Positions 12,316 to 29,225 of a DNA stretch of 64,000 nucleotides are shown in pieces (within the stretch, counting starts at the first letter, position 1; every line of letters begins with the position of its first letter). The stretch covers positions 1,248,001 through 1,312,000 of the forward strand of contig CBDCWI010000002.1 in NCBI GenBank assembly GCA_965223325.1, in the 5' to 3' direction. Made by a program: the position numbers and the translations under genes. The notes beneath the pieces were generated by a model, which saw nothing but the letters and a program-made list of their open reading frames with translations, was not told where the DNA came from and ran no database searches. This DNA comes from Candidatus Multivoradales bacterium. GTDB taxonomy: Bacteria; Acidobacteriota; Thermoanaerobaculia; Multivoradales; Multivoraceae.

Positions 12316-12603
12316 CAGTTGATCCTCGAGAGAGATGGGGAGCGTAGTCGCTGGGAAACAAAGGAAAGCAGGCCGGACCCGCCGCCTCGACCACTGTACC
12401 GGCGCGACCCTACGCAATGCCTTCGGTGACTCGCGACGGGCCGCGGCCGGCGCCGTTGACCTGGGCCTGCCTGGTTGAGTCCTCGGACCAGCGTATCGCC
12501 CGCAGGGGCCCTGTGTTCTGCAGTGTTCCAGCGCTGGGGCTGTACTCTGCGGGCGCACACCCCTTGGACCTCGAACCGACCTCAACGACCCGAGAGACTT
12601 CTG

Positions 12604-13746
12604 ATGACCGAACTTCCTGCGCGCCAACTCCAACTGCAGTCGACGATCACCAAGGGCGGCGAGCTCCGCCTCGAGCTCGTCGAGGTTCCCACTCCCGAGC
12701 TCCGCGACCAGGACGTTCTGGTGCGGGTCGAGGCGAGCCCCATCAACCCCTCGGACCTCGGGCTCCTCTTCGGGGTTGCCGACATGTCGACCGCCCGCGC
12801 TACCGGCACCGATCAAAAACCTGAGATCACTGCCGACGTGCCGGAGAAGGTTCTCGGCGCGATGGCGGGCCGCCTTGACCAGGCGATGCCGGTGGGCAAC
12901 GAAGGCTGCGGCGTGGTCGTGGCTACCGGCTCGGATGAAGCGGCCCAGGCGCTCCTCGGCAAGACCGTGGCAATCCTCGGCGGCGCCATGTACTCCCAGT
13001 ACCGCGCCACCCCCGCCGCCGGTTGCCTGGTTCTTCCCGATGGAACCGACCCTGCGGCCGGTGCGTCGTGCTTCGTCAATCCGCTGACCGCCCTCGGCAT
13101 GGTCGAAACGATGCAACGTGAAGGGCACAGCGCGCTGGTGCACACTGCCGCAGCGTCGAACCTCGGCCAGATGCTCCAGAAAATCTGTCTCGCCGATGGA
13201 ATCGACCTGGTCAATATCGTCCGTCGCGAAGAACAAGCGCAGGTCTTGCGCGATCTCGGAGCGAAGCACGTCTGCGACTCGAGTGCCGAGACCTTTCGCT
13301 CCGACCTCGCCCGCGCGCTCGCTCAGTCGGGCGCCACCCTCGCCTTCGACGCCATCGGCGGCGGGCGCCTGGCCTCGGACATTCTGGCGGCGATGGAGGT
13401 CGCCGCGAGTCAGAACGCCGACACCTACAGCCGCTATGGATCGACCGTTCACAAGCAGGTCTACATCTACGGCGGCCTCGACCGCGGGCCAACGGAACTC
13501 CGCCGTGCCTACGGCATGGCCTGGGGCATCGGGGGCTGGCTGCTGCCGATCTTCCTCGACCGCGTCGGTCCCGAAGTCGGTGCGCGCATGCGGCAGCGGG
13601 TTGCCAACGAACTCCACACCACCTTCGCGAGCTCCTACGCACGCGAGATCTCACTCTTCGAGGCACTCGATCTCGACAACATCGCGATCTACGGCAAGCA
13701 GGCCACCGGCGAGAAGTTCCTGGTGCGTCCCAACAAGGGACTCTGA
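12604..13746 (+). CDS. MDR-family NAD(P)H oxidoreductase (enoyl-reductase-like)
   Basis: EASPINPSDLG, VGNEGCG, FVNPLTALGM, HTAAASNLGQML motifs. Confidence 0.88.
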   Translation: MTELPARQLQLQSTITKGGELRLELVEVPTPELRDQDVLVRVEASPINPSDLGLLFGVADMSTARATGTDQKPEITADVPEKVLGAMAGRLDQAMPVGNEGCGVVVATGSDEAAQALLGKTVAILGGAMYSQYRATPAAGCLVLPDGTDPAAGASCFVNPLTALGMVETMQREGHSALVHTAAASNLGQMLQKICLADGIDLVNIVRREEQAQVLRDLGAKHVCDSSAETFRSDLARALAQSGATLAFDAIGGGRLASDILAAMEVAASQNADTYSRYGSTVHKQVYIYGGLDRGPTELRRAYGMAWGIGGWLLPIFLDRVGPEVGARMRQRVANELHTTFASSYAREISLFEALDLDNIAIYGKQATGEKFLVRPNKGL

Positions 13747-13747
13747 A

Positions 13748-14545
13748 GTGGAACGGCTGAGCAACTACCAGACCCTCCAGTTCGAACGCTCTGACCGCGT
13801 CCTCACCATGACGCTTCAAGGTGCCCCACCGGTGAACGGCGTCACCGAACGCATGCACGAAGAGCTCGCGACGGTGTTCTTCGACCTGCAGCGTGACGAG
13901 GGAAGCGATCTGATCGTCATGACTGGCCAGGGGCGTGCCTTCTGTGCCGGCGCTGATATGGCGTTCTTCGAGCGCATGATCGACGACCCGAAGATCCTGC
14001 GCGACATGCTGCCCGACGCCAAGCGCATCATTCATGGCCTGATCGACCTCGAGAAACCCATCATCTGCCGCATGAACGGCGCCGCCGCAGGGTTGGGAGC
14101 CAGCCTTGCTCTCCTCTCTGACATCATCGTTGCCGACGAGACGTCGAAGATCGGTGATCCGCATGTCAAGGTCGGCCTGGTCGCCGGCGACGGCGGCGCA
14201 ATCATCTGGCCACAGCTCGTCGGCATGGCAAAGGCAAAGGAGCTCCTCCTGACCGGCGACATGATCACCGCCGGCGAGGCCGCCGACCTCGGGCTGATCA
14301 ACTACGCCGTCCCGGCACCGGAGCTCGACACCAAGGTCGAGGCTCTGGCGGCAAAGGTCCTCAGTAACCCCCGCTGGGCGGTGCGTTGGACCAAAACGGC
14401 GATGAACATCACCCTCCGCGACCTCGCCAACAAGATCAACGATGCGGCGATGGCCTACGAGCTGGTGAGCAACCTCACCGAAGACCGCAAAGAGGCGGTG
14501 CGCGCCTTCATCGAGAAGCGCGGGGCCCGGCTGACCGGCGAGTAG
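13748..14545 (+). CDS. Enoyl-CoA hydratase/isomerase family protein
   Basis: GRAFCAGAD, NGAAAGLG, DPHVKVGLVAGDGG motifs; GTG start 1 nt after the upstream stop. Confidence 0.9.
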   Translation: MERLSNYQTLQFERSDRVLTMTLQGAPPVNGVTERMHEELATVFFDLQRDEGSDLIVMTGQGRAFCAGADMAFFERMIDDPKILRDMLPDAKRIIHGLIDLEKPIICRMNGAAAGLGASLALLSDIIVADETSKIGDPHVKVGLVAGDGGAIIWPQLVGMAKAKELLLTGDMITAGEAADLGLINYAVPAPELDTKVEALAAKVLSNPRWAVRWTKTAMNITLRDLANKINDAAMAYELVSNLTEDRKEAVRAFIEKRGARLTGE

Positions 14546-14721
14546 CGGGCCCACACCCTGCGGGCGAGCCTTCCACGCATCGCAACAGGTGCATACTCCG
14601 CGGTGGCGACCCCGGAAACGTATGATTGAGGGGCCGGCTCGCGCAGTCGGTCCTGCCCGTTTCCGCATCCCCGCGGCCCCACCCCCTCCTCAGCCTGACT
14701 CCCAGAAGGGCCTTAGCCTCC

Positions 14722-15618
14722 TTGATTGTCTGCCAGGGACTCACCAAGACCTATCGCAACGGCCACCGCGCCCTGGCGCCCCTCGACCTGACCGTCGACC
14801 AGGGTGTCGTGGGTCTCTTGGGGCCCAACGGGGCCGGGAAGACGACTCTCCTTTCGATGCTGGTCCTGGCACTCGAACCGAGCGCCGGGACCCGGGAGTG
14901 GTTCGGCCTCGACGACCGGCCGGCGCACCACGCAACCATTCGACCCTGGATCGGCTTTCTGCCTCAGGAGATGGACCTGGTAGCCGGCCTGACCGGTCGC
15001 GAGGTCCTCTACTTCGCTGCCCGGCTGCGCCAGGTCGACTTGACGCGCCACCAACTCGACCGGCGCATCACCGGGCTGCTGGCGGCGGTCGGGCTCGAAC
15101 AAGACGGTAACCGTCGGGCCGATCACTACTCGGGCGGCATGCAACGACGACTCGGAACGGCCATGGCCCTCGTGCACCGGCCGCGCTTCCTGGTCGTCGA
15201 CGAACCCACCGCCGGCCTCGATCCTGAAGAACGGTTGCGCTTTCGCGCCCTGGTGACCGAGCTCGGAGACCGCATTCCAGTGCTCCTCTCGACACACATC
15301 GTCGAAGACATCGAGGCCACCTGTCCACGGCTGGTGATCCTCGAAGAAGGTCAGGCCATCTTCGACGATGGGCCGGGGGTGCTCTTCGAGGCAACGGCCG
15401 GCAAAGTCTGGCGCCTGCCACCCGACGCTGCCGACCGGCAAACCGACGCACCGGTCATCGGCCGTGCCAGTGACGGCGAACGGCCGTGCGACGTAGTGTG
15501 GAGCGCCGGACCGCCCGCCGGCTTCGCCGGCGACGAAGTGACATTGCTCGAGCCGAGCCTCGAACAGGCCTATGCGGCCTGGCTCGCCGCCAGCAACGCC
15601 CGGAAGGTGGCGGCATGA
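14722..15618 (+). CDS. ABC transporter ATP-binding protein (ABC-2/DrrA-like; start uncertain)
   Basis: Walker A GPNGAGKTT, signature YSGGM, Walker B VVDE, H-loop STH. Confidence 0.92.
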   Translation: MIVCQGLTKTYRNGHRALAPLDLTVDQGVVGLLGPNGAGKTTLLSMLVLALEPSAGTREWFGLDDRPAHHATIRPWIGFLPQEMDLVAGLTGREVLYFAARLRQVDLTRHQLDRRITGLLAAVGLEQDGNRRADHYSGGMQRRLGTAMALVHRPRFLVVDEPTAGLDPEERLRFRALVTELGDRIPVLLSTHIVEDIEATCPRLVILEEGQAIFDDGPGVLFEATAGKVWRLPPDAADRQTDAPVIGRASDGERPCDVVWSAGPPAGFAGDEVTLLEPSLEQAYAAWLAASNARKVAA

Positions 15619-18407
15619 ACAGCCATCGCTCCAGCCCTTCAATGCTGTGGCCCCTCTTGCGGCTCGAGTGGCTCCTGCAGCTCCGTTCGCTGCGCTTTCG
15701 CTTTGCGGTCGCGCTCTCTCTCGCCCTGGCGGCTTTCCCGCCGCTCCTCCTCCACCTGAACCTGGCAGAGCAGCGCTGGCAGTTCGGACCGACGAGCTTT
15801 CTCACCGAGACCCAGGCGCTTCTGCCACTGCTTTCGGTTCTGTTGACCGTCGCAATCGTCGGCAACACCGCCCGCCGCCCCGGCATGACGCAACTCTTGA
15901 TCTCTTCGCCGATTTCAGTCGCGGGCTACTCGCTGACCAGGCTGTTGGCGCAAATCGCCACCGTCCTGCCGCTCACGTTGCTGGCTCTTCTCCCGGCGCT
16001 CGGCCTGGGCATTTGGCATTTCGGTACCGGCGACCTACCGCTGCGCACGGCTCTCTTGCTGTGGCTCTTGGAGATCGCACCACGTGTTCTGATCGTTGCG
16101 TCTGCCTGGCTGGGCCTGGTTCTCCTGGTGCAGAGTGAGGTGGCGGCCTTCTTCCTCGCCTGGCTCGGTGGGCTGACGGGCGAGGCGCTCCTCGACCGGC
16201 TGACCTTCCCGCTCGGCGTTCGCCTCAGCGAGTCAACGAGCTGGATCGGCATTCAGGAGTTCGGCCAGTGGGTGACAGTCCACTTCTTCATGAACGACAA
16301 CGAGCGGGCATGGCTCACGTTGCCGGCCACCGAGGCCCCGATCGTGCTCGACGCGGCCACCGCCGAGAGCCTGCTGCCCCTCCTCTTGCCACTCGCGGGG
16401 GCGCTCTTGGCTCTCTTGATCGGCATGAGCCGCATGGGTCGAACGACGCCCGACACGGGAGTGCGCCCGATTCCGCCGGATCATCCATTGCGCACCTTTC
16501 TTCAGCGGGCGCGCGACGTCCGCGACGCGATGCGCGCCGACGCCGGGCAGACGACCCGCGATCGCGCCCTTCGTTGGTCCGCTGCGGCCCTGGCCATCGT
16601 GATCGTCTCGATCGCGGTCCTGCGCGCCCGCGCGGTGGTCGATGCCGCAAACCGTCGCTACAACGCCATGGTTGCACCCGCGATCACCGCGACCGACTCC
16701 GCGGCTCGCATCGAGAGGTGGTCCGTCGTCGGCAGCCTTGGACCCCGCGGCCAGCTTTCTACGACGACCACCGGCGTCGTCACCAACACCGGCAATCGAG
16801 CTCTCTTAGCCCTGGGGTTCGAGCTCACCGACGGCGTCCGGGTCGACGCGGTCACGGCGACGGTCGCCGGCCAGACGCGCACAATCACCAAAGAGCGCCA
16901 GTTCGACCGCTTGGGTCTGCTCCTCGAACCCGCCCTCGATCCCGGCGCTACGCTCGAGCTCGAGGTCAAGACTTCGGGCCGGCCGCGCCATCTTGTCCTT
17001 CCGATTCGTGGATCTCTGGCGATCCGTTGGAAGCGCCATCTCGAGGCACGCTTTCCCCGCCATCTCGTCGCCGCCGGGAGCGCTCGTTTTGGCTCGGGGA
17101 TGAGTCCCGAAAGAACCGAACTCGGTCTTTCCGACCTGTCTCCACAGCCTCGCTTCACGACCTGGGAACTCACCCCTCCACCCGAGTTTCCCGGCGGACC
17201 CGGCCGGACCGTTCCGCCAGAGGAGGGACCGAGAGAGGTCGATCTGCGCTTCGATCTCGAGGTGCCAGACACCTGGACGCTCGTCGACTCGTGCGGGCAG
17301 GTGGCAAACGCCGGCCGGCTCCGATCGAGCTGCCGACAGCAGCCTGCGACCTGGCAGCTGGTGGGTGGCCGCGACTATGAACTCCACTCCTCCGCGGACG
17401 GGCAAGTCAAAGCGGCGCTCCTCGCTCCGCATGCGGAAGGTGCAGGTACTGTCTTGTCTGCCATGTCGCGGGTGGCTGAACTGTCGCGCGAAGGAAGAGG
17501 TGGCTTCGCTCCGATCGAGCGCATCACCCTCTGGGAGTACACGCCTCCCTTCGGCGCGCATCCCCAAACGGCACTAGCCGGCTTCCTCAGAAACCGTGAC
17601 GACAAGCCGATCATCAAGGGTCGACTGGTGTGGTTGCCCGAAGCATCGATCCTTCGTCCAGAGCCAATTGCCGCCGAAGCGCTCGCCGCGGCGATCCTCA
17701 TACAGGACGTCGAACTGCCCGAAGCCGCCACCGAAGCGGACGGCCGGGCACTGCGGGCTCTGCTTCGCACCTGGGTCCTCGAGCGCCTGGGCGTCGAACG
17801 GGAGAGTGCGGTGGTGTTCGCCAGCGGCTGGCAGTCCTGGAGCCTCTATCAACCGATGCTCGGAGCTGACCCCTACGACGGCCACTACTGGGGGCAACGC
17901 GTCCCAGCGCTTCTGGTTGACCTCAAGCACCGGGTCGGCGGCGCTGCACTCGACCGGGCCTTTAGGACCACTCTCCTCGAGCCGGAAGCCGCCGCTGCAC
18001 TCCCGGGCCCGGTGAGCGTACGCGGTTTGATCGAAGCGATCGCGCGCGAGTCGGGCAAAGACCTGTCGCAGTACTACGCCGACTACATCGCCCGCGGGCA
18101 CCTGCCGAGACTCATTCTGGCGAACGTCACCTCACGCCCCGAACGCGGTGTCTGGCGGGTCGAAGGCCAGCTGCGCAACGAGGGCCGTGGGCAGTCCGAG
18201 TGCCCCATCGTCGTGCAGACAGTGGCTGGCCCTGCGAGCATCAGAGTCACCGTCGACGGGTCCAGCCAGACGTCCTTCGAACTCGAGACCGATGGGCGCC
18301 CGCACACCGTCGTCGTGGACCCTGAAGAAACCTGTCTGCGTTTTCGCGCCTGGCGGCAACGTCGTCAGGAACGAGCTGACCTGGTCGGCGGAGATGAGGG
18401 CACATGA
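15615..18407 (+). CDS. ABC-2-type permease fused to a large extracytoplasmic, M1-aminopeptidase-like domain lacking HExxH
   Basis: About 7 N-terminal TM helices, then a beta-rich region. C-terminal LLVDLKHRVGGAAL..ESGKDLSQYYADYI..LP..VVVDPE resembles M1 C-terminal motifs. Overlaps the ATPase stop. Confidence 0.65.
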   Translation: MNSHRSSPSMLWPLLRLEWLLQLRSLRFRFAVALSLALAAFPPLLLHLNLAEQRWQFGPTSFLTETQALLPLLSVLLTVAIVGNTARRPGMTQLLISSPISVAGYSLTRLLAQIATVLPLTLLALLPALGLGIWHFGTGDLPLRTALLLWLLEIAPRVLIVASAWLGLVLLVQSEVAAFFLAWLGGLTGEALLDRLTFPLGVRLSESTSWIGIQEFGQWVTVHFFMNDNERAWLTLPATEAPIVLDAATAESLLPLLLPLAGALLALLIGMSRMGRTTPDTGVRPIPPDHPLRTFLQRARDVRDAMRADAGQTTRDRALRWSAAALAIVIVSIAVLRARAVVDAANRRYNAMVAPAITATDSAARIERWSVVGSLGPRGQLSTTTTGVVTNTGNRALLALGFELTDGVRVDAVTATVAGQTRTITKERQFDRLGLLLEPALDPGATLELEVKTSGRPRHLVLPIRGSLAIRWKRHLEARFPRHLVAAGSARFGSGMSPERTELGLSDLSPQPRFTTWELTPPPEFPGGPGRTVPPEEGPREVDLRFDLEVPDTWTLVDSCGQVANAGRLRSSCRQQPATWQLVGGRDYELHSSADGQVKAALLAPHAEGAGTVLSAMSRVAELSREGRGGFAPIERITLWEYTPPFGAHPQTALAGFLRNRDDKPIIKGRLVWLPEASILRPEPIAAEALAAAILIQDVELPEAATEADGRALRALLRTWVLERLGVERESAVVFASGWQSWSLYQPMLGADPYDGHYWGQRVPALLVDLKHRVGGAALDRAFRTTLLEPEAAAALPGPVSVRGLIEAIARESGKDLSQYYADYIARGHLPRLILANVTSRPERGVWRVEGQLRNEGRGQSECPIVVQTVAGPASIRVTVDGSSQTSFELETDGRPHTVVVDPEETCLRFRAWRQRRQERADLVGGDEGT

Positions 18408-19147
18408 GTCGGCAAGCCCGGAGCTCTCTCGGCAGCGTGCCGACGAGAGTGCAGGCCGTTCTCTGGCGCGCCTGGTACGACGTCGACCTCCTCCTCGGCC
18501 GACGCATCTGGCTGCTGCTCCTGGTCGACGGCATGCTGATCCTCTCCGGAATCCAGACCGCCGTCGACGCCGACGGCGACCAGCAAGCCTGGGTTCTGTA
18601 CCGCCAGACCGTGCTCATTCCCGCTTTCGTTCTCATGCTGCCCGCCCTTTCGGCGGTGCTTGCCCTCGAACGGCGGGCGGGGTCTTTAGAACTGGCTCTC
18701 TCCTCGGTCTCGGTAACGCGCTACGTCGCCCGTCGCGTGTGGCCTCTACCTGTGTTCTTTATCGTGCAGTCGCTTTTGGTGATCCCTTTCCTCCCCCACC
18801 CGCGCCGCGCCTGGCTCCTGCTCGTCGCCCTGCACGCGATCGCCGTCATTCTCAGCCTGGTGGCGGTGGTGGTCTTTTGGATCGTACGCATCGAGACTGC
18901 GGGAGGCGTGCTGGTCGCGGCGCTGGCGAGCTCGATCGCGCTCTCGACATTCGTCTTCAGGAGCCCGTTTCCACCGCGCACCGTCTTGACATTCGACCGA
19001 CTGCGACTGCCCCTACTCGAGAACGTCTCGACGCACCTGGTTGAGACTTTGTGGGGAATCGTCGTGCTTCTCGCGACCAGCCTGGTCTTGTTGATCGCTG
19101 CACGGTGGCGACTCCGACGACCGCATCGCCTGGCAGGCCATCACTGA
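18404..19147 (+). CDS. ABC-2-type membrane permease
   Basis: About 6 TM helices with an ERRAGSLEL coupling-type motif; ATGA overlap with the upstream gene. Confidence 0.72.
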   Translation: MSRQARSSLGSVPTRVQAVLWRAWYDVDLLLGRRIWLLLLVDGMLILSGIQTAVDADGDQQAWVLYRQTVLIPAFVLMLPALSAVLALERRAGSLELALSSVSVTRYVARRVWPLPVFFIVQSLLVIPFLPHPRRAWLLLVALHAIAVILSLVAVVVFWIVRIETAGGVLVAALASSIALSTFVFRSPFPPRTVLTFDRLRLPLLENVSTHLVETLWGIVVLLATSLVLLIAARWRLRRPHRLAGHH

Positions 19148-19207
19148 TCGACGGGCCCTCCCCTGCCCCATGGACTCTTCCTACCCGCTAACACCGAGAA
19201 CCCGAAC

Positions 19208-20419
19208 ATGAACCACCTTCAACGACCGCAACAGCGGGCTGCCCCCATCGGGGCGACCGGACTGGTTTGCGTTCTCTGCCTCACCGCGTGCGTAACGCCC
19301 GAGTCCCCACCGGTCGAACCGACAGCGGTCGCCGTGACCTCGGAAGTGGTGGCCAGGAAGCCGTTTCGCGCCGCCATTGACCTACTCGGTGAAGTCGAGG
19401 CTCACTCGCTCACACCCATCACCGCACCCATCGCCGGCGAGCTCGAACTGGCCGCGCGCTTTCGCAACGGGTTCGAAACGGGAGCCAGCGTCCGGCGCGG
19501 TGAGGTGCTGGCAACCATCTCCAACCTCGACCTACGCCTGGAGGTCGACCGCGCCACACTCGAAGTGTCCACCAAGGACGCCGAACTCGAACGGACCCAA
19601 GCTGGCGTTGATGCAGGAGTCGTGCGCGACGTCGATTTGGAGCGGGCGCGAGACGAGGCGAAGATCGCCCACGCGCAGCTCGAGGCTGCGCGAGCACGTC
19701 TAGAACGTCGTATCGTGCGCTCGCCGAGAACCGGATGGCTGCGGGTCGCCGAAACGATCCACTCGGCAACTGAAGTCTCGGCCGGGCAGGTCTTGGCAAG
19801 CGTCGCGGAAGGTGGACCCCAGCGCATCGTCGCGTGGGCCAGTGCCTCGGACCTGCCGCGTCTTCGCTCGGCGCTCGACGACCCCTCGACCGTTGTCGAG
19901 GCTCGGCTTCCAGGCCGAATCGAGCCGATCGCCAGCGGGCGGTTGGTCGAAGTCGCCCGCGACCTCGACCAGCACGGCGCGGCGCGGATCGGCGCAGTAG
20001 CCCTCGAGTCCTACCTGCTTCCGCCAGCCGGTCAGGGGCTCGAAGTGCGGGTCCTCATCGGCGAGGCCGAAGACAGCCTCACGGTGCCCGAAGACGCCCT
20101 GGTCAAACGCTCGGGCATCTCCTCGGTCTGGGTCCTCGAAACCACGGGCGATCACTTCCGGGCGAACCATCGCATCGTCACCCTCGGCGGCCAGAACGAC
20201 GGCACCTGGCAGGTCGTCGACGGGCTGGCCGAAGGCGAGCGCATTGCTGTGCGTGGGGTGGAGTTGCTCAGCGACGGTGGACTCGCCATTCGCGACGACC
20301 GTCGGCGGACGGCCTCGGGTCGCTGGGTGAGCAGCGACGACTCACCGCCGGAATCCGCGCGCACAGGCCAGGACGAAAGTGAACCCGGCGACCAGGAGCA
20401 GGAGACGGCCGACCCTTGA
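19208..20419 (+). CDS. RND efflux periplasmic adaptor (MFP) lipoprotein
   Basis: Lipobox LTAC; lipoyl-like G.SVRRGEVLA, alpha-hairpin, IVRSP..G, LTVPEDAL, GLAEGERI. Confidence 0.88.
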   Translation: MNHLQRPQQRAAPIGATGLVCVLCLTACVTPESPPVEPTAVAVTSEVVARKPFRAAIDLLGEVEAHSLTPITAPIAGELELAARFRNGFETGASVRRGEVLATISNLDLRLEVDRATLEVSTKDAELERTQAGVDAGVVRDVDLERARDEAKIAHAQLEAARARLERRIVRSPRTGWLRVAETIHSATEVSAGQVLASVAEGGPQRIVAWASASDLPRLRSALDDPSTVVEARLPGRIEPIASGRLVEVARDLDQHGAARIGAVALESYLLPPAGQGLEVRVLIGEAEDSLTVPEDALVKRSGISSVWVLETTGDHFRANHRIVTLGGQNDGTWQVVDGLAEGERIAVRGVELLSDGGLAIRDDRRRTASGRWVSSDDSPPESARTGQDESEPGDQEQETADP

Positions 20420-23400
20420 CGACCCGCAAGTCAGAGGACAGGGAAAACGATCCGGCGCCCCCCGGACCACCGCTAGAGGGCCCGGTGCGGCGACTGGTGT
20501 CGGCCTGCCTCGAGCGCCCGACCGCCGTCACCATCGCCAGCCTTGCGTTGGTGGCACTCGGCGCTCTCTCACTCCTTCGACTGCCGGTCGCCCTCTTGCC
20601 GCAGCTCGAACGACCCGCCCTGGTGGTCTTGCTCGAGGACCCGGAAGCCGGCCGGGAGGATCTGCTCCTGCGCGCCGTCGAGCCGCTCGAGCGCCGTTTG
20701 ATGACGCTCCCGGGAGTCTTGCGCGTCGAAAGTTGGGTCGGCGACGGTACAGCGCGCCTGGTCACTGAAGCCGAGTGGCAAACCGATCCTGACACCTTGC
20801 GCATCGACGCAGAGCGCCGCCTCGCCGGAATCGATCTCGGCAACGCACGGCGCACCATCACGATGCGCTCGGGCGACTCCGAACCGGTTCTCTCGATTGT
20901 CATCACCGGCGGCCGTTCGGCGATCCACCGCGCACGATTCACCGACCGCACCCTGGTTCCCGAGTTGGCGACCAGCCGTGGCGCCGGCGACCTGCACCGC
21001 ACGGGCGGTGCCACCCTGCGGCCCGTGGTTCGGCCCCATGCGGCAGCTCTTGCCGCCAACGACCTGTCCGCCCACAGCATCGCACTGCGACTCGAGAGCA
21101 TCGGAGAAAGCCGGCCGATCGGCCGCATCCGCGAAGGAGGCGAACGCAGAGCGCTCGAGTTCGGAGAGACGGTGCGTACTATCGAAGAACTCGCGCGCGT
21201 CCGCGTGTACCGCGAAGGCGAGATGAGCGAGGGGCCCGGTGTCGCTCTCGGAGACCTTGCCCAGGTGGCGCTCGAGTCGGTGCGTGAGGACGGCCTCTAT
21301 CGCTACCGCGGACGCGACGCGGTCCTGCTCGAGCTCTGGCGAGGCCCCGGCCAGAACGCGGTGCGACTGGCGCGCGACGCCAAACAGAAGGTCGCCTCCC
21401 TCAAAAGTGCGGCGAACGCCGAAGGGATCGAGCTGCAGACGATCGACAACGCCGGCGACGAGGTGGAGCAAGCACTGCTGGCGCTCGGCGGAGCGGCGCT
21501 CCTCGGCCTGTTCTTCGCCACCGTCATTCTGCGTTTGCTCCTCGGCGCCTGGCTCCCGACCCTGGTTCTCGCGGTCATCATTCCGGCGTCTCTCGCGATT
21601 ACCTTTGGCCTCTTCCTGCTCACCGGCACGACGCTCGACATCGTGGCGCTCGCTGGCCTGGCGCTGGCGATCGGACTCCTGGTCGACAACTCGATCGTGG
21701 TGCTCGAAGCGATCGCGGTGACAAGTCGCCGAGGAAAGCAGGAAGTAGGCGATGAAGCGGACGCTGGTGTCAGTGAGCTGGGAACACAGGCCACGGTACG
21801 AACGGTTGTCGCGACCGGCGTCGGAGGAGTTGCGGCGGCATTGGTGGGCAGTTTTCTCACCACCGCTGCGATCTTCATTCCCCTCATCTATCTACGCGGC
21901 CTGGCTCGCGCGTTCTTTGGCGTTCAGGCCTTCGCCATCGTCGGAGCGCTCCTGGTCTCGCTCCTCTTGTCGTTGACTCTGCTTCCCGTCATCGTTTCGG
22001 TCTTCGGTCGAGGTCGTCGATCGGCTCCTCGCGCCCTCCTTCGATCGGCGGTTGAGAGCGGGCGTCAACCGCTGCGCCCCCTCTTTCTGCGCCTTCTCCG
22101 CGCCGCGCTCAGAACACCGCGAACTACCGTGGTCTTCGCCTCGCTCGTCGCCCTTGTGACCGGTGGTCTCGCGTACCTGACCCTACCGCGCGCCTTGATG
22201 CCTGGCGGACCGGCCCAGGGTCTCGAGGCCACCCTCACCTTCCCCGGTGACCTCGACGAGGACGCGGTGCTCGAGCGGATGCTCGAACTCGAGGCGAACC
22301 TGGTGGGCAACGCCAACCATCCCTGGTCGTTGCGCTGGCGGACCGCTGGCCTCGCCGATCCCGACCCCGACGAACGGGAGAATGGCCTCCTCCGTCTGGT
22401 GGGAGAACCGGACAACCGTGAGTTTGACGAGTTCATCGCCCGTACCCGCGAAGCGCTCCTCCGAACGCCTGGCCTCGACTCGAGCCTCAGGCGCCGGGGT
22501 AGCGCCCTCGAGCGCGCCTTCGATCGCAGCCTGGCCCGCTTCGAGATCGATGCCAGCGCGCCCACACCGGTCAGCGCTCGCCAGTTGGCCGACCGCGTTC
22601 TCGAGGCCGACGCGACCCAAGCGGGAGGAGCCCGGCTCGTCGAGCGTTACCCACCCACACCGCATCGCACGCTCCACCTCCGCCCAGGTGTTCTCGGCAA
22701 GGTCGACGCGGTGAGTATCGAGCGCCAGGTGGGAGCGAGCCTCGGCGGCATCGAAGCCGGTCGTCTCGACGGCGACGCCTATCCCGATGCCGACGCCGCC
22801 ATCCTCCTCGAGGCTACCGAACCAAGAGATCCAGCACGCCTCCCGGTGGTCACCGCAAGCGTGACCCAGGGAGGCGAGCGAGCGGTGCCGCTTGGAGTCC
22901 TGGCGGTCTTCGAAGACCGACGCTCACCTGCACCGTGGTTCAGAGTCAACGGCCGGCCGTCGGTGCGCATCGAGCAGGCCTCCGGCGCACCGCTCCATGA
23001 GGGAGCGCTCGAGCTCCGGCCGGACGAAACCCTCCGGCCAACCGGAACCGCCTTCGAAACGCGGCGTTCCTTCAGACAGCTCGGCCTCGCTCTGGGACTC
23101 GGCCTGGTCCTCATGTGGCTAACCCTCGCGGCGCTTCAGGAGTCGCTCGTTCTGCCCCTCGCGACCCTCTTGACCCTCCCGATCGCAATCGCCGGCGGCC
23201 TGACGGCGCTTCTGGTCTCTGGGCAGACCCTCAACGTCGCGTCGATTCTCGGACTGGTGCTGTTGTCTGGGATCGTGGTCAACAACTCCATCGTACTTCT
23301 CTTTCGAATGGAGTCGCATTGGCGAGGCGGTGCCAGCGCGCCCGAGGCCGCGCTCCTAGGAGCACGCGAGCGCTACCGCCCCATCCTCATGACCTCGGCC

Positions 23401-23556
23401 ACCACGGTCGCAGCCCTCCTGCCCTTGGCCATCGCCGGTGCCGGAATCGAGGCATCGCTCGCTGTCGGCGTCATCGGTGGGCTGCTCGCCGGCTTCATCG
23501 GCTCGCTGATCGTCTCGCCGGCGACCTGGGCACTGCTGCGCCGGGCGAGTCAGTAG
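20416..23556 (+). CDS. RND efflux permease (AcrB/MdtBC superfamily)
   Basis: 1046 aa; TM4 GLLVDNSIVVLE, TM10 GIVVNNSIVL, RYRPILMT, GVIGGL. Confidence 0.9.
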   Translation: MTTRKSEDRENDPAPPGPPLEGPVRRLVSACLERPTAVTIASLALVALGALSLLRLPVALLPQLERPALVVLLEDPEAGREDLLLRAVEPLERRLMTLPGVLRVESWVGDGTARLVTEAEWQTDPDTLRIDAERRLAGIDLGNARRTITMRSGDSEPVLSIVITGGRSAIHRARFTDRTLVPELATSRGAGDLHRTGGATLRPVVRPHAAALAANDLSAHSIALRLESIGESRPIGRIREGGERRALEFGETVRTIEELARVRVYREGEMSEGPGVALGDLAQVALESVREDGLYRYRGRDAVLLELWRGPGQNAVRLARDAKQKVASLKSAANAEGIELQTIDNAGDEVEQALLALGGAALLGLFFATVILRLLLGAWLPTLVLAVIIPASLAITFGLFLLTGTTLDIVALAGLALAIGLLVDNSIVVLEAIAVTSRRGKQEVGDEADAGVSELGTQATVRTVVATGVGGVAAALVGSFLTTAAIFIPLIYLRGLARAFFGVQAFAIVGALLVSLLLSLTLLPVIVSVFGRGRRSAPRALLRSAVESGRQPLRPLFLRLLRAALRTPRTTVVFASLVALVTGGLAYLTLPRALMPGGPAQGLEATLTFPGDLDEDAVLERMLELEANLVGNANHPWSLRWRTAGLADPDPDERENGLLRLVGEPDNREFDEFIARTREALLRTPGLDSSLRRRGSALERAFDRSLARFEIDASAPTPVSARQLADRVLEADATQAGGARLVERYPPTPHRTLHLRPGVLGKVDAVSIERQVGASLGGIEAGRLDGDAYPDADAAILLEATEPRDPARLPVVTASVTQGGERAVPLGVLAVFEDRRSPAPWFRVNGRPSVRIEQASGAPLHEGALELRPDETLRPTGTAFETRRSFRQLGLALGLGLVLMWLTLAALQESLVLPLATLLTLPIAIAGGLTALLVSGQTLNVASILGLVLLSGIVVNNSIVLLFRMESHWRGGASAPEAALLGARERYRPILMTSATTVAALLPLAIAGAGIEASLAVGVIGGLLAGFIGSLIVSPATWALLRRASQ

Positions 23557-23557
23557 C

Positions 23558-26500
23558 GTGAGGCAAACCAACCGAAAGCCTGCCGGGCAGAATCGGAGCC
23601 TTTCGGCGATTCTCATTCTCCTTTCCCTCTGGATCATCGGCGGAGTCGCCGCCACCGAGCTCCAACCGAGCTGGCTGCCAACGGCCGGTGGCGGCGACCT
23701 GCGCATCAACCTCACGCTCAGAAACGCCCTGCCCGTCGAAGTGGTCACCGAACGCTTCGTCGTGCCCATCGAGGCGGCGACGCGCGCCGCCGGAGGAATC
23801 CAGGAAGCGGTCGGTAGAGTTTCGACACACGGCGCTGATCTCCAGCTGCGCCTGGCGCCCGCACCCGCGACCGGGATCCCGAGGAGCACAACCACCGCTG
23901 GCGAGCGCAAACTCGCACGCCTCGAAACCGAGCTTTTGCCTCTGCGCGAAACACTGCCCGAAGGCGCGCGACTCGAGGTTTCAGCCGGCAGTCGCACGCG
24001 CAGCTTCGCGCTCGCACTGTGGATCGATGACGACGAGGCGGCCATCACCTCGCACCGCGATCGTTTGCGCGCCCTGCCGGAGGTGCGCCACGTCGATCTA
24101 GCGGGCGTTGGAAACACGCGTGTCGAAATCACGCCGCGACCAGAGTCGAATGACCCGGAGTCGAGGCGCGCCATAGAGACAGCCGCTAACCACGTCGCTC
24201 GCAGCGTCGACCTCGGGACCTATCGCACAGAGACCGGGCAGGAGATTCCGCTACGCACCGGTAGCCCCGCCTCCAGGAACCAGACCCTGGGTGAGACCGT
24301 CATCGCTGCTGGAGGCACGGCCCCGCCCATGCGACTCGACGCGATCGCCGATCTCGCCATCAACCGTCGCGCCGCCGACTTCCGCGTGCGCGCCGACGGA
24401 GAGGCCGGACGAGCCCTCCTCATCCATGGCCAAGACGGCGGCACACAGCGCGATGCGGCGGGCGGCCCGCTGGCCCTGCGGCGCGCGCTCGACCGTTACC
24501 GCGCCACGCACGACCTGCTGGAGAACAGCCGCATTCTCTTCGACGACGGTGGGCCGCTGCGCGACTTTCTAGGCCGCGGCTTGACGGCCCTTGTTGTCCT
24601 CGCACTCGTTCTCCTCGTCGCTGGTTGGTCGTCGCTCGGACCGCGAGCGGGACTCTGGTGGGCTTCCTCGCTCCCCACCGCCATGGCTCTGGTTGCGACC
24701 GCAGCCCGACTTTTGGACTTCGAACTGACGATCGTCACCATGCCGACCATCCTCGTGGGACTTCTCGCGGGGCCGCTGGCCCACTCGCTTCTCATGATGG
24801 CGAGGTCCGACGAAGGTGGGAGGGGCAGTCGCTGGCTCTGGTTCTTCGCCGCCTCGAGTCTCAGCCTGGTGGCCATCCGTTGGCTCGGAGGACCTCTGGC
24901 GCCAATCCTCGAAGGGCCGGCGCGCGTGTTCTGGACAACCACTACGCTGGCCGCGTTGGGCGGTACGGGAACAGGCCTCTTCGCGCGCCGCGCTGCAACG
25001 CGGGGTGGGCAGCGGCCCAAGCTGCGACCGACGGCACAGCGCTTCGCCCGCACCATCCTGCGCCTCAACTTGCGCCACGCACCAGCGGTCGTAGCGGTCA
25101 CCCTTCTACCGGTCTGGTTCGCTGTCGGCTGGCTCTTGCCCACCCTCACGCCGCGGCCAACCAGCCTGGCTCCTCCGAGCGACGACCTGGTGATCGAGGT
25201 CATGCCTCCGCATGGGTACACGGTCTCGGAAACGGAACAGTTGGTCGCCAATATCGAAGCCCATCTACAAGCGAAGTTCAAGCAGCGCCCACCTGGTGGG
25301 ACGCCCGAAAACGACGGTGCAACCTGGTGGTCGTGGCTCGGCGCCTCCCAGGCGCGCATTCTCATCGACCTCCACGAGGACTTGGGGCGGGGCGAGCTGG
25401 AACGCCGCGCGCTGCGCCTCGAAAGCGAGCTCGCGGTCCTCCCGGCGATCATAGAAGTCAAGAGTCTGACCGACGGTGCGGCGGCATCGGCCCCGGCCGT
25501 GCGTTTCTCGGGCAGCCTGGCGAGCGAGGCCGAGACCGACGACGACGCCTTCAGCTATCGCGTCCTCTTGAGCGCCACCCGCCTCGAGGCGCTGCGCCGC
25601 GCCGAGCGCCTCATCACTCGCGGCCTGTCGACACGCGGCATTCCGCCGCGCTCGATTCACACCGCCTGGAGCACTCCCGAAACCATCGTTCGCCTCGAAC
25701 CGATCACCGCCGGTGGTCTCGGGGCCAGCGAAGCGGCGGCCCTCGATCTGCTCGCCGAACGCAGCCGACCGCCGGTCAGCCGACCGCTGGCGGGTCAACG
25801 TGACATCGAGTGGACGCTTCGCCGGCCCGGCACTCCGACTCACGTCGACCCAGAACAGCTACCGCCGCCTGAACTCGAAACACTCCGCCGCCCCGAGGTC
25901 ACCACCCTCGGGCCAATCGCTCCGCTCGATGCCTTTCGCCTCAGACGGACCCTACGCGAGCCCATGGTTCTGCGCGAGAACGGCCGCTACGTGCTACCTG
26001 TCGATATCGCGCTTTCCGGTAGCGAATCAAAGCGCCGAGCGCTGCAAAGAGACACCCACCGCTGGCTGGGACAAAGGGCAGGCTCACTCGGCGTCCACAT
26101 CGAACGTCCGCGCATGGGGCGCTGGGAGAGGGCACTGGAGCACCAGCGCCTCTTGTCTCTCCTGCTCTTTCTCCCGGTTCTGGCGCTGGTCCTCGCCGGC
26201 ATCCGGCTCGACTCCTCTACTCTCGCCCTCTTCTCAGGCGCAGCGTTGGCGGTGGCGATCTCGGTTGCGATCCTGGCGTTGCGCGCCGGCAGTGGCCAGG
26301 CCTCCGCGATGAGTCTCTTCGCCCTCGCGACGGGGATCTCGCTGTCGTTGCCGATGCTCCTCGAGCACCTGGCGCGCGGCGCCGATGCCTCTCGGGTTCA
26401 CCAACCGTATGGCTGGCGCGGTGACCTCCGCGTCTCCGGTTTCTCGATTGCCGCGCTGCGACGACTGCTCCAAAACATCGTGCCGTTCGCCTGCGTGGCG

Positions 26501-27778
26501 ATGTTGCCGCTTCTGCTGGCTGTCCTGGCAGGTGCCGGCCTCGAGAGAACTCGCGAACCGTGGGTGGAACCGCTCTACACCGCTGGCTTCGCGGCAACCG
26601 CTCTGATGCTGACCGCGTTGGCGCTGACACCGGCGCTCCTGGCTCTTCGTCGCGCCGCGATCTCGAAAGCGAGGACCAGTAGAGGCGCCCGCTCAGAAGA
26701 ATGGCAGAAACTGACCTCGCCGCCGCCCTGGCGCGAGCCGGCCCTCGGCAAGGCGGGCGACGGCGGCGCTCCGGAGATCGAAGTCCGGCACCTGACCCGG
26801 GTGTACCGACCGCCGACAGTCAGACTGCATCGCAAGATCAGCGATGGCCGGCCGCCCGACCCGCGCCAGGCGCGCGAGGGTTTCAGGGCGCTCTATGACC
26901 TGAACTTCGAACTCGGTCCCGGCATCGTGGGCCTGCTTGGTCCCAACGGAGCCGGCAAGACGACTCTTCTCCACCTCCTGTGCGGCCTGGCACATCCAGA
27001 CCGTGGTCGCTTGATGTACCGCGGCGTGACCGTCACACCGCTCAACCTGACCGCCTATCGCCGACGCATCGGCTACCTTCCCCAAACGTTCAACGCACCT
27101 GCCCGGGTTTCGGTTGAGCGCTTTCTCGACTATCAGGCGCTCGAACTCGGCATTCACGATCGGAGCGAGCGCCGGCGGATCATCGACGGGTTACTCGAGC
27201 GGGTCGAGCTCGAACAGGCGCGCACCACCGAGGTCCGAGAGCTGTCCGGTGGTATGCGAAGGCGTGCTGGCGTAGCGCGAGCACTGATCGGTGACCCTGG
27301 TGTTCTGATCGTCGATGAACCGACCACCGGGCTCGACGTCGACTCGCGTCGCAAGTTGCGCCAGACCCTGCTCGAGGTCGCCGACCAGCGCATCGTCTTC
27401 TTCTCGACCCACATCGCCAGTGACATTCAAGCCGCCGCGGTTCGCATTCTGGTTCTTGGGGCTGGTCGACTGCTCTTCGACGGTTCGGCTGAAGAGCTCA
27501 AGCGACGCGCCGGGAGCCGGGTAGCCGTTGCCACGACTGACGACGTCGCGCTGCGTGCTCTCCTCACCGAATACCGCGTGACAACCCGGGTGCGCACGGC
27601 CGACGGAGTGAAAGTGCGCTTCGTGCTCGCACCAGGCCAACCGCTGCCTCCCGGCGCGGTTGCCGAGAAGCCGACTCTCGAGGAGGCCTGCGTCGCCCTC
27701 ATGGCGGAGCAACTAGACGGTGCGTTAGAGCTCGAGCCCGAGCGCGCCACCTCGGTCTTGTGGCCTTCGGCCAGCTAG
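23558..27778 (+). CDS. Degenerate RND permease-like protein fused to a C-terminal ABC ATPase domain
   Basis: About 1040 aa with a two-repeat TM/periplasmic RND-like layout, then GPNGAGKTT, YLPQ, LSGGM, LIVDE, STH. Single uninterrupted ORF. Confidence 0.8.
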   Translation: MRQTNRKPAGQNRSLSAILILLSLWIIGGVAATELQPSWLPTAGGGDLRINLTLRNALPVEVVTERFVVPIEAATRAAGGIQEAVGRVSTHGADLQLRLAPAPATGIPRSTTTAGERKLARLETELLPLRETLPEGARLEVSAGSRTRSFALALWIDDDEAAITSHRDRLRALPEVRHVDLAGVGNTRVEITPRPESNDPESRRAIETAANHVARSVDLGTYRTETGQEIPLRTGSPASRNQTLGETVIAAGGTAPPMRLDAIADLAINRRAADFRVRADGEAGRALLIHGQDGGTQRDAAGGPLALRRALDRYRATHDLLENSRILFDDGGPLRDFLGRGLTALVVLALVLLVAGWSSLGPRAGLWWASSLPTAMALVATAARLLDFELTIVTMPTILVGLLAGPLAHSLLMMARSDEGGRGSRWLWFFAASSLSLVAIRWLGGPLAPILEGPARVFWTTTTLAALGGTGTGLFARRAATRGGQRPKLRPTAQRFARTILRLNLRHAPAVVAVTLLPVWFAVGWLLPTLTPRPTSLAPPSDDLVIEVMPPHGYTVSETEQLVANIEAHLQAKFKQRPPGGTPENDGATWWSWLGASQARILIDLHEDLGRGELERRALRLESELAVLPAIIEVKSLTDGAAASAPAVRFSGSLASEAETDDDAFSYRVLLSATRLEALRRAERLITRGLSTRGIPPRSIHTAWSTPETIVRLEPITAGGLGASEAAALDLLAERSRPPVSRPLAGQRDIEWTLRRPGTPTHVDPEQLPPPELETLRRPEVTTLGPIAPLDAFRLRRTLREPMVLRENGRYVLPVDIALSGSESKRRALQRDTHRWLGQRAGSLGVHIERPRMGRWERALEHQRLLSLLLFLPVLALVLAGIRLDSSTLALFSGAALAVAISVAILALRAGSGQASAMSLFALATGISLSLPMLLEHLARGADASRVHQPYGWRGDLRVSGFSIAALRRLLQNIVPFACVAMLPLLLAVLAGAGLERTREPWVEPLYTAGFAATALMLTALALTPALLALRRAAISKARTSRGARSEEWQKLTSPPPWREPALGKAGDGGAPEIEVRHLTRVYRPPTVRLHRKISDGRPPDPRQAREGFRALYDLNFELGPGIVGLLGPNGAGKTTLLHLLCGLAHPDRGRLMYRGVTVTPLNLTAYRRRIGYLPQTFNAPARVSVERFLDYQALELGIHDRSERRRIIDGLLERVELEQARTTEVRELSGGMRRRAGVARALIGDPGVLIVDEPTTGLDVDSRRKLRQTLLEVADQRIVFFSTHIASDIQAAAVRILVLGAGRLLFDGSAEELKRRAGSRVAVATTDDVALRALLTEYRVTTRVRTADGVKVRFVLAPGQPLPPGAVAEKPTLEEACVALMAEQLDGALELEPERATSVLWPSAS

Positions 27779-27824
27779 CCGACCCCAGGAAAGGCTGAGG
27801 AGCATGAGCCGCCCTTGCCGCTTC

Positions 27825-28853
27825 TCAGCGCCCGAGGACGATGTCGGCAACTCGGCGGAGAGTCTCGGGATCGCGGGTGCCGACCAGCAGCGTGGTGACC
27901 AGGCTGTCGTCCCAGGCGGCAAGCCGATCGCGGATTCTCTCGGGCGAACCCACCAGTGAGATCTCGTCGGCGAACTCCGTCGGCACGAGGGCTGCCGCCT
28001 CTTGGCGGCGGCCCGACATGAAGGCGTCCATGATCTCTTCTGCGAGCTTGGGATAGCCCATGCGCGCGAAGAGTTCGCGATGGAAGTTGCGCTTCTTCGA
28101 GCCCATGCCACCAACGTAGAAACTCACCCGCTCCCGCACGCTCATGAGCGCCTTGTCGACGTCGTCCTCGAGGACGATGGGAACGCCGTAGAAGATCTCG
28201 AACCCCTTCTCCATTCCCACCAGCGAATCTCTATAGACCTCGGGTCGGTAAGGCGTGTAGTAGAGCGGGATCCAACCGTCGCAGAGCTCGACCGCCAACG
28301 CAACGTTCTTCGGCCCTTCGGCTCCGAGAATGATGGGCAGGTCGGCTCGCAATGGGTGCACGATGGGCTTGAGCGGTTTGCCCATTCCCCACGAGCCCTC
28401 GCCGGTGTAGGGCAGCGGGTAGTGCTCGCCGTGGTTCTTGACCGGCGCTTCGCGCCGCATGACCTGGCGAATGATCGAAACGTACTCGCGAGTGCGTGAG
28501 AGAGGCTTCGCGAACGGTTGCCCGTACCATCCCTCGACGACCTGCGGCCCCGAAACTCCCAGCCCGAGGATGACCCGGCCACCGCTCAGATGATCGAGCG
28601 TGAGGGCATGCATCGCGGTCGCCGTCGGTGTGCGCGCCGAGAGCTGCGCGATCCCAGTACCCAGGCGAATGCTGGAGGTCTGGGAACCGATCCACGAAAG
28701 TGGCGTGAAAACGTCGCTACCCCAGGCCTCGGCGGTGAAGACCGAAGTAAAGCCAAGCTCCTCCGCCACGACGGCAAGATCGACAAAACCGGGAGTCGGT
28801 CCAGCGTCCCAATAACCGAGGGCGAGTCCGAGTTCGAGTGCCATCGCCGCCAA
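27825..28853 (-). CDS. LLM class, probably F420-dependent oxidoreductase (Rv3520c-like)
   Basis: LGYW..FTAEAWGSD..SARTPTA..LGLGVSGPQVVEGWYG..GAEGPKNV closely matches my recollection of the Rv3520c family. Confidence 0.85.
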   Translation of the reverse strand: MAAMALELGLALGYWDAGPTPGFVDLAVVAEELGFTSVFTAEAWGSDVFTPLSWIGSQTSSIRLGTGIAQLSARTPTATAMHALTLDHLSGGRVILGLGVSGPQVVEGWYGQPFAKPLSRTREYVSIIRQVMRREAPVKNHGEHYPLPYTGEGSWGMGKPLKPIVHPLRADLPIILGAEGPKNVALAVELCDGWIPLYYTPYRPEVYRDSLVGMEKGFEIFYGVPIVLEDDVDKALMSVRERVSFYVGGMGSKKRNFHRELFARMGYPKLAEEIMDAFMSGRRQEAAALVPTEFADEISLVGSPERIRDRLAAWDDSLVTTLLVGTRDPETLRRVADIVLGR

Positions 28854-28928
28854 GGTAGCACAGCGAGCGAGCCGGCAGGAGCACCTGGCGATGTGCGCCC
28901 TGGCGGGTGATGTGGGCGCGGTGTGCTC

Positions 28929-29225
28929 TCAGGCCTGCAGGACGCGCGGCCGAACCCAACCGAACTCGCGCAGCGCGAGTTCCTCGGCGACGTTGAGCAT
29001 CTGGCATGCCGCGCGCGCCGAGTCGTCGGGCGAAACGCCCATGGCAACCTGCTCGGCGCGCACACTGTCGATCATCACGTCGAGCTGATGAAAGAAGGCG
29101 TCGATCTTGAGCTCGCGCTCGTGACCGTCGTAGTACTCCTCGGCGGCCTCCTTGAGTTGCTGCAGCGTGTCGAGCATCGCAAGTTTCATTTCCTGGTCTG
29201 TACGGATCATCAGCAACTCCTCCAA
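28929..29225 (-). CDS. Small helical hypothetical protein
   Basis: Protein-like composition; fills the gap between co-oriented genes. Confidence 0.6.
   Translation of the reverse strand: MEELLMIRTDQEMKLAMLDTLQQLKEAAEEYYDGHERELKIDAFFHQLDVMIDSVRAEQVAMGVSPDDSARAACQMLNVAEELALREFGWVRPRVLQA

Follow-up and report, generated by a model that had tools for sequence, protein, structure and literature searches.

Resistance-nodulation-division (RND) and ATP-binding cassette (ABC) pumps are taught as distinct solutions that draw on different energy sources, and to our knowledge the links between them are a matter of functional cooperation across compartments, never of shared subunits. Here we describe a gene in which the two are covalently joined. 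It lies in a 64,000-nucleotide stretch of DNA, referred to below as the window, from Candidatus Multivoradales bacterium (Acidobacteriota; Thermoanaerobaculia; GenBank assembly GCA_965223325.1, contig CBDCWI010000002.1, positions 1,248,001 to 1,312,000 of the forward strand). Positions 23558-27778 of the window (+ strand) encode a protein with an RND-like N-terminal module and a C-terminal ABC nucleotide-binding domain (NBD), the last product of a six-gene operon.

Several described systems share features with this locus. As in MdtABC and MuxABC, two paralogous RND permease genes stand in tandem behind an adaptor gene; MdtB2C1 is named as an RND heterotrimer in passages of PMC7015380 and PMC8277102. 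The locus differs in that its second paralog lacks the relay residues of transmembrane segments (TMs) 4 and 10 and carries a C-terminal ABC ATPase. Moreover, the paralogs here are far more diverged, with BLASTP finding nothing between them, and a heterotrimer is only predicted. With AcrB, AdeB and CusA the fusion protein shares a full-length fold, profile homology, 12 TMs and two large periplasmic loops. The proton relay of AcrB is numbered D407/D408/K940; the fusion has no equivalents of these residues or of the RxRPIxMT motif, and it has an added NBD.

On the ABC side, the likeness is to the ABC-2 permease/M1-aminopeptidase transporters, which combine ABC-2 membrane domains with an M1 fold, as this operon appears to do; the ATPase of one such system, a paralog in the same genome, falls in the same 99/99 clade as the free and fused NBDs. 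A search of the open-access literature found no paper on these transporters. The classical system consists of one ATPase and a single polypeptide in which two ABC2_membrane domains are combined with an intact HEAAH, whereas in the operon the putative membrane domains are on two genes, the HEXXH is lost, and the ATPase is duplicated, with one copy fused to the RND module. MacAB-TolC and YbhGFSR, the latter with an adaptor encoded by ybhG, resemble the locus in uniting an ABC ATPase and a membrane fusion protein in one envelope pump, but those pumps have no RND component. YbhFSR is presented in part of PMC7190983 as an ABC-2-type system with two permeases, and MacB, in part of PMC8277102, as an NBD placed N-terminal to a 4-TM permease of the FtsX type. 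The fusion does not belong to this MacB/FtsX (type VII) class, since its NBD is C-terminal, it has 12 TMs and its fold is RND. SecDF, a member of the RND superfamily, is described in PMC8277102 as cooperating with the ATP-driven SecYEG-SecA; there, however, the association is non-covalent, the ATPase is of the SecA class, and SecDF keeps its proton coupling. A covalent RND-NBD subunit is found in none of MdtABC, MacAB, YbhGFSR, the ABC-2/M1 transporters or SecDF. No description of an RND-ABC fusion was found in open-access full texts and preprints, and in the available passages of a 2021 review of tripartite pumps (PMC8277102) the word 'fused' refers only to MacB and SecDF.

The fusion gene is one open frame of 1406 aa with a GTG start and its sole stop at the end. 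The GTG sits 2 nt past the TAG of the upstream canonical RND gene, and there is no alternative start upstream of TM1. A first-pass annotation, made from the letters of the window, had described a 1406-aa reading frame with an RND-like TM layout followed by a linker and a complete ABC NBD. Both descriptions hold: the frame is uninterrupted, hydropathy and AlphaFold2 (AF2) secondary structure give a 1+5/1+5 plan, and the NBD carries the motifs reported for it. The protein divides into the following parts:

23558..26677, + strand: RND-like module of the fusion (aa 1-1040), with 12 TMs and two large periplasmic loops, and no mid-TM4 acidic residues
26678..26770, + strand: linker of the fusion (aa 1041-1071), a cytoplasmic extension of TM12 and then a conserved PPxW directly before the NBD
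26771..27517, + strand: fused ABC NBD core (aa 1072-1320), matched by Pfam ABC_tran
27518..27778, + strand: C-terminal domain of the fusion, ~85 aa, with an LEEA(Y/C) motif (by alignment; the free ATPase has the same domain), then tail and stop

By hydropathy and AF2, TM1 (residues 11-34) is followed by a loop of 290 aa (39-330) and five TMs (331-481), and TM7 (508-530) by a loop of 320 aa (533-854) and five TMs (855-1040). This is the RND plan, with large periplasmic loops between TM1 and TM2 and between TM7 and TM8. Given the basic N-terminus (RQTNRKPAGQNR) and the 12 TMs, both termini should be cytoplasmic; the NBD, which begins ~30-40 residues past TM12, would likewise lie in the cytoplasm. 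AF2 predicts a single helix over residues 1003-1044, so that TM12 runs on into the cytoplasm, and the PPxW-type motif of the linker is kept in 6 of 6 aligned orthologues.

The fused architecture is conserved. Among 40 related genomes, 6 carry a homologue at ~30% identity (7 of 41 counting the window genome), and in all six relatives the gene reads through without a break over 1300-1397 aa, with Walker A at aa 1027-1115. When 1.84 billion cluster representatives were searched exhaustively with HMMER, 71 matched at E<=1e-3. All 40 of the representatives of at least 1150 aa carry Walker A, at aa 898-1173, as do 6 of the 8 between 900 and 1149 aa. Two shorter proteins, P0014 (1101 aa) and P0017 (997 aa), were considered as split forms and rejected, because both stop inside the first strand of the NBD and are cut proteins; no split or unfused form was found among the 71. 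The same architecture that the first-pass annotation had proposed to look for in homologues is therefore the form in which they occur. A contig search with the single protein as query returned 9 loci, matching only the NBD of unrelated ABC proteins.

The proposed check of the junction at 26650-26780 turned up no stop and no frameshift. Contigs from runs X1, X3 and X4 (samples S1-S3 of one study) cross it without indels; one run's contig covers the whole stretch, and this assembly may have been taken from it. In the other two runs the junction lies within contigs of 896 and 1889 nt; the check was made on assembled contigs. Short metagenomic contigs that share only the 40 bases 26924-26964 (coding for Walker A, 90-95%) were set aside as ABC genes of other organisms rather than variants of the locus. 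The genome carrying the operon consists of two contigs. We conclude that the fusion is a genuine, conserved two-module protein.

Its distribution is narrow. In a survey of the phylum, 5 of 401 sampled genomes carried the fusion, all from one class, and the two named members are Thermoanaerobaculia records of metagenome-assembled genomes. The fusion family is thus small and phylogenetically narrow. Members bear public names such as 'ATP-binding cassette domain-containing protein' or 'ABC-2 type transport system ATP-binding protein'; these labels mention the ABC part alone, and the RND half has therefore been overlooked. Since Pfam finds both domains in most members, the combined architecture is probably visible in domain databases, and has gone unrecognised rather than being undetectable.

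Assignment of the N-terminal module to RND required profiles. Within residues 1-1060 of the window protein, Pfam ACR_tran has no match even at E<=10, whether the region is taken whole or in halves. BLASTP of the N-terminal 1060 aa against the neighbouring canonical RND permease gave nothing convincing (best E 0.17), and a word-indexed search of 5.8 billion proteins with the same segment returned only itself among 8000 scored candidates. Relatives were recovered only by profiles and the exhaustive HMMER search, and not by single-sequence searches with the N-terminal part. The Pfam check proposed in the first-pass annotation thus had a split result: ABC_tran matches, and ACR_tran misses the window member, yet it matches 33 of 38 full-length members of the family (best E 7.6e-29). 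The profile built from 7 N-terminal parts retrieves AdeB, MtrD, MdtF, AcrB and MexB from the PDB at E 3e-24 to 1e-13. Aligned by hhalign with the family of the neighbouring canonical RND, the fusion family matches end to end over 927 columns (probability 99.9, E=5.8e-32).

The structure prediction that had been called for agrees. From a 42-row alignment, AF2 models the RND-like module at pLDDT 82.5 and pTM 0.84, and in Foldseek the whole length of the model aligns with BpeF, AcrB, AcrD, OqxB and CusA (E~1e-33, TM-scores 0.61-0.67). A layout of one TM, a large loop and a TM bundle could also suggest a MacB/FtsX-like or duplicated-FtsX permease; the fold search rules this out. Fold and ancestry place the N-terminal module in the RND superfamily; it is strongly diverged, and its 12-TM, porter and docking fold is complete. 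The window protein, the most diverged member of its family (median identity to the others 25% in the RND part), is assigned through profile and fold evidence, not through Pfam.

In the neighbouring canonical RND permease the relay motifs are present: LVDN in TM4, VVNN in TM10 and RYRPILMT in TM11, with D424, N956/N957 and R988 invariant among 6 orthologues. In the profile-profile alignment, the canonical LVDN stands opposite a gap in the fusion family, the VVNN positions pair with P-M/P-L, and only the second Arg of RYRPILMT survives, as R969. This Arg column of TM11 is Arg in 31 of 38 members, and a second alignment puts the window residue at R968, an offset of one residue. An Asp or Glu anywhere in the TM4 core occurs in 1 of 38 members. 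The statement of the first-pass annotation that VDD/VDN and RxRPIxMT are lacking was right as worded. Judged by the TM4 acidic pair, TM10 Lys/Asn and TM11 Arg together, the fusion falls outside the proton-relay class: by alignment, the canonical relay residues are lost in the family, and the N-terminal module should not be classed among the canonical proton-coupled RND permeases. The further claim, that proton coupling itself has been lost, goes beyond the residues, and we infer no more than that the module may be uncoupled. The proton relay of one MdtBC subunit is reportedly dispensable, according to Kim and Nikaido.

The family keeps an Asp at the start of TM4 (31/38) and an Asp-Glu at the start of TM10 (D 32/38, E 31/38). 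As an alternative relay these were rejected, because they align with the canonical LD/LN at the periplasmic end and not with the mid-membrane relay sites. At these positions the window member has T391 (nt 24728) and S916/A917 (nt 26303-26308). With the conserved Asp and Asp-Glu gone and Pfam unable to recognise it, the RND module of the window member may be evolving faster or degenerating.

The fused NBD is strongly constrained. Pfam ABC_tran matches aa 1114-1257 at E=1.2e-28, and the motifs comprise Walker A GPNGAGKTT (1128-1136, nt 26939-26965), an LPQ Q-loop, LSGGM at 1229, LIVDEP and STH; the corresponding residues are A-loop Y1083, Q1176, SGGM 1230-1233, D1253/E1254 and H1285. Tyr1083, K1134, Q1176, S1230-G1232 and H1285 are invariant in the family, and 37-38 of 38 members retain all five catalytic motifs. 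Across the family, pairwise identity has a median of 61% in the NBD and of 29% in the RND part. This conservation, together with the intact motifs, favours a working ATPase, and from its sequence we take the fused NBD to be a bona fide, catalytically complete ABC ATPase domain. It reaches none of the NCBIfam subfamily cut-offs; the nearest models, DrrA, NodI and GldA, describe ATPases of ABC-2 systems, with TIGR01188 drrA on top at 153.7 bits against a cut-off of 312.45.

Beyond the core, E1375, E1376 and A1377 of the C-terminal LEEA motif are invariant. Past LEEAY, 29 of 40 full-length members have a short hydrophobic tail motif in their last 25 residues (LLDL, SFSFL or FAFL type), which may be a docking peptide; the window member ends only in ...SVLWPSAS (window 27700-27775), and the free ATPase has no tail motif. 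A 22-aa insertion (PPTVRLHRKISDGRPPDPRQAR) separates the first strand of the fused NBD from the second, at aa 1084-1105 (window 26807-26872). Of the 5 aligned orthologues, 3 have an insertion of another length at this site, and the free ATPases have none.

The fusion gene closes an operon of six closely spaced genes:

14722..15618, + strand: free ABC ATPase, first gene of the operon (Pfam ABC_tran, E=5.2e-23)
15615..18407, + strand: 930-aa membrane protein, ~7 N-terminal TMs (ABC-2-permease-like) and a ~580-aa extracytoplasmic M1-aminopeptidase-like domain without HEXXH
18404..19147, + strand: putative second ABC-2-type permease, 247 aa, six hydrophobic segments taken as 6 TMs
19208..20419, + strand: periplasmic adaptor (membrane fusion protein), a lipoprotein with an LTAC lipobox (TIGR01730 RND_mfp, 111.6 bits against a cut-off of 94.9; Pfam HlyD_3)
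20416..23556, + strand: canonical RND permease, 1046 aa (Pfam ACR_tran, E=3.6e-111)
23558..27778, + strand: RND-ABC fusion, sixth and last gene (Pfam ABC_tran; RND by profile and fold)

The order of the six genes is identical in 8 of 8 operons with enough flank, that is, in the window and in seven relatives, which span at least four other families of the same class. The eighth relative is on a short contig, where all that shows in front of the fusion is the canonical RND gene.

The start of the free ATPase was set at the TTG at 14722 by alignment of homologue starts; the longest reading frame begins at 14626. Its Walker A, Q-loop, YSGGM, VVDEP and STH are kept in 6 of 6 orthologues. Pfam gives no match for the 930-aa protein. 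Its AF2 model (pLDDT 82.2) leads Foldseek to IRAP, ERAP1 and aminopeptidase N at E~1e-15, and its profile matches aminopeptidase N 5zi5 at E=7.7e-4. Its look-alikes in the Atlas are named 'ABC transporter permease/M1 family aminopeptidase' (score 0.96), and JGI names a homologue as an ABC-type permease subunit. HEXXH is absent from 10 of 10 members of this family, and the M1-like domain is therefore predicted to be catalytically dead. It may serve as a periplasmic pseudo-peptidase, possibly one that binds peptides. For the 247-aa protein, the clusters of Atlas look-alikes contain ABC2_membrane families at minority shares (scores 0.93-0.96), a lead rather than proof. Pfam ABC2_membrane matches neither the 930-aa nor the 247-aa protein.

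Phylogeny points to the origin of the ABC half. In the window genome the best match of the free NBD is the fused one and vice versa, save for one third ATPase. In a maximum-likelihood tree of 24 NBDs, the free and fused forms are sister clades (82/78) inside a 99/99 clade that includes this third ATPase, which itself lies beside a protein of 1234 aa that combines two ABC2_membrane domains with a Peptidase_M1 domain whose HEAAH is intact. The tree and the neighbouring gene together therefore suggest that the ABC half of the operon derives from a classical ABC-2 permease/M1 peptidase transporter. On this sequence-based history, the ATPase would have been duplicated and one copy joined to the end of an RND gene. 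The paralogous classical system lies in the same genome at G000:C1:2015476-2020095 (L023:7483-12095) and is followed by a beta-lactamase-family gene.

How the fused NBD is used can be read in several ways. The first-pass annotation had left two options, that the subunit draws on ATP itself or that it tethers the RND oligomer to an ABC transporter. The setting of the gene appears to favour tethering, since a sister NBD and two putative ABC-2-type permeases accompany it in 8 of 8 operons. The most likely reading, in our judgement evenly poised between right and wrong, takes the fused NBD for the second of two ATPases in the ABC-2 transporter, to which it would couple the RND assembly. The fused and free NBDs would form the heterodimeric ATPase of an ABC-2 transporter built from the two permeases; a heterotetrameric transporter is suggested because there are two different permeases and two different NBDs that are nevertheless sisters. 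The heterodimer is thus proposed from gene content and phylogeny. The RND-like module would join the canonical RND as an MdtB2C-like heterotrimer beneath the adaptor, making the fusion protein a covalent bridge within a hybrid assembly. At the inner membrane the ABC-2 half, driven by ATP, would move or release a substrate, which could be a peptide or a lipid-linked molecule that the pseudo-peptidase domain recognises. The RND-adaptor half, driven by protons, would hand this substrate on through an outer-membrane channel whose gene lies elsewhere in the genome.

Several observations weigh against coupling of the RND assembly to an ABC-2 transporter. A degenerate ATP site marks many obligate NBD heterodimers, and here all catalytic motifs are kept in both NBDs, with no degenerate site; since both are intact, a homodimer of the free NBD could serve the ABC-2 permeases by itself. 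The sister grouping of free and fused NBDs has moderate support (82/78). The 247-aa protein has no sequence match in Pfam or the PDB, and its profile finds nothing in the PDB below E 0.8, so that the case for its ABC-2 nature is weak and consists of language-model look-alikes and six TMs. The RND module of the window member could be decaying, as it has no ACR_tran match and the conserved TM4/TM10 acidic residues are gone. Finally, the operon has no gene for an outer-membrane factor, the nearest lying ~26 kb away. A four-chain complex prediction (the TM part of permease 1, permease 2, and the free and fused NBD cores), made without controls, gave scores of 0.30 and 0.22, where the mark is 0.32, and speaks neither for nor against binding.

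An ATP-driven or ATP-gated RND heterotrimer is an unlikely but serious competitor. Here the fusion and the canonical RND would assemble, for example at 2:1, the tethered NBDs would dimerise beneath them, and ATP would cycle the relay-less protomers, leaving the upstream ABC-2 genes as a separate transporter served by the free ATPase. Such a scheme fits the absence of relay residues alongside fully conserved ATPase motifs, the tandem and translationally coupled RND genes after an adaptor gene, as in mdtABC, and the short tether formed where AF2 extends TM12 into the cytoplasm; MdtB2C1 supplies a precedent for a 2:1 RND heterotrimer in the relevant part of PMC7015380. The same linker, however, is 30-40 residues long and partly unstructured, a poor transmitter of force, and no coupling helix or groove that could receive an NBD is known in the RND fold. 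The twofold symmetry of an NBD dimer can be fitted to threefold RND symmetry only through a special stoichiometry, and the constant company of a free sister NBD and two putative ABC-2-type permeases in all eight operons would go unexplained.

A regulatory or assembly role is a still fainter prospect. The fused NBD would then be an ATP sensor or dimerisation handle that does no transport work and controls a pump driven by proton-motive force through the canonical RND. The canonical RND does keep D424 and R988 and could energise a pump on its own, and the conserved C-terminal domain and the tail motif of 29 of 40 members resemble interaction modules. Yet the Walker B Glu, the H-loop and the Q-loop, which serve hydrolysis and not binding, are kept in 37-38 of 38 members despite 29% identity in the RND part, and this conservation therefore favours turnover over mere binding. 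That the fusion is an artefact, whether a mis-assembly or frameshift joining two genes or an RND pseudogene remnant in front of an ordinary ABC ATPase, we regard as scarcely credible. It could draw on the blindness of Pfam to the RND domain of the window member and on the family-conserved residues missing there, but the frame is fused in 40 of 40 sufficiently long homologues, contigs of three runs cross the junction without indels, and the 1060-aa module is free of stops and confidently folds as a full RND.

Coupling of the RND assembly to an ABC-2 transporter, if taken to its full extent, would give one doubly energised, envelope-spanning machine, in which a proton-driven RND-adaptor pump and an ATP-driven ABC-2 transporter are joined by a subunit that is half RND and half ATPase. 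In a bolder version, ATP hydrolysis would directly drive the proton-decoupled RND protomer. We rate the doubly energised machine as a tentative proposal, a little short of an even prospect. More broadly, the six-gene operon with its ABC and RND components suggests a hybrid export machine not yet described. If this is true, the fusion would be the first protein of the RND superfamily to carry an ATPase itself, and the assembly the first physical ABC-RND hybrid pump. A conserved covalent RND-ABC protein offers a natural test case for the coupling of two transport cycles, for whether an RND scaffold can work without a proton relay, and for what the widespread, uncharacterised ABC-2/M1-peptidase transporters export. 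Because the fusion family is small and phylogenetically narrow, its practical impact would be on mechanism rather than medicine.

The genome has about ten OEP genes, none of them in the operon. The nearest is a TolC-like gene with two OEP repeats at window 54495-55721 (+), ~26 kb downstream of the operon. A scan of 14000-29000 gave 0 promoter-like sites and 12 terminator-like sites versus 7.3 expected, and was uninformative. Luciferase-like monooxygenase genes flank the operon on both sides. The one at 11050-13617 (-) is an 855-aa reading frame in which the Pfam match is limited to residues 435-764, and the one downstream, at 27825-28853 (-), is convergent with the fusion gene. Directly upstream of the operon, an enoyl-CoA hydratase gene lies within 13118-14545 (+).

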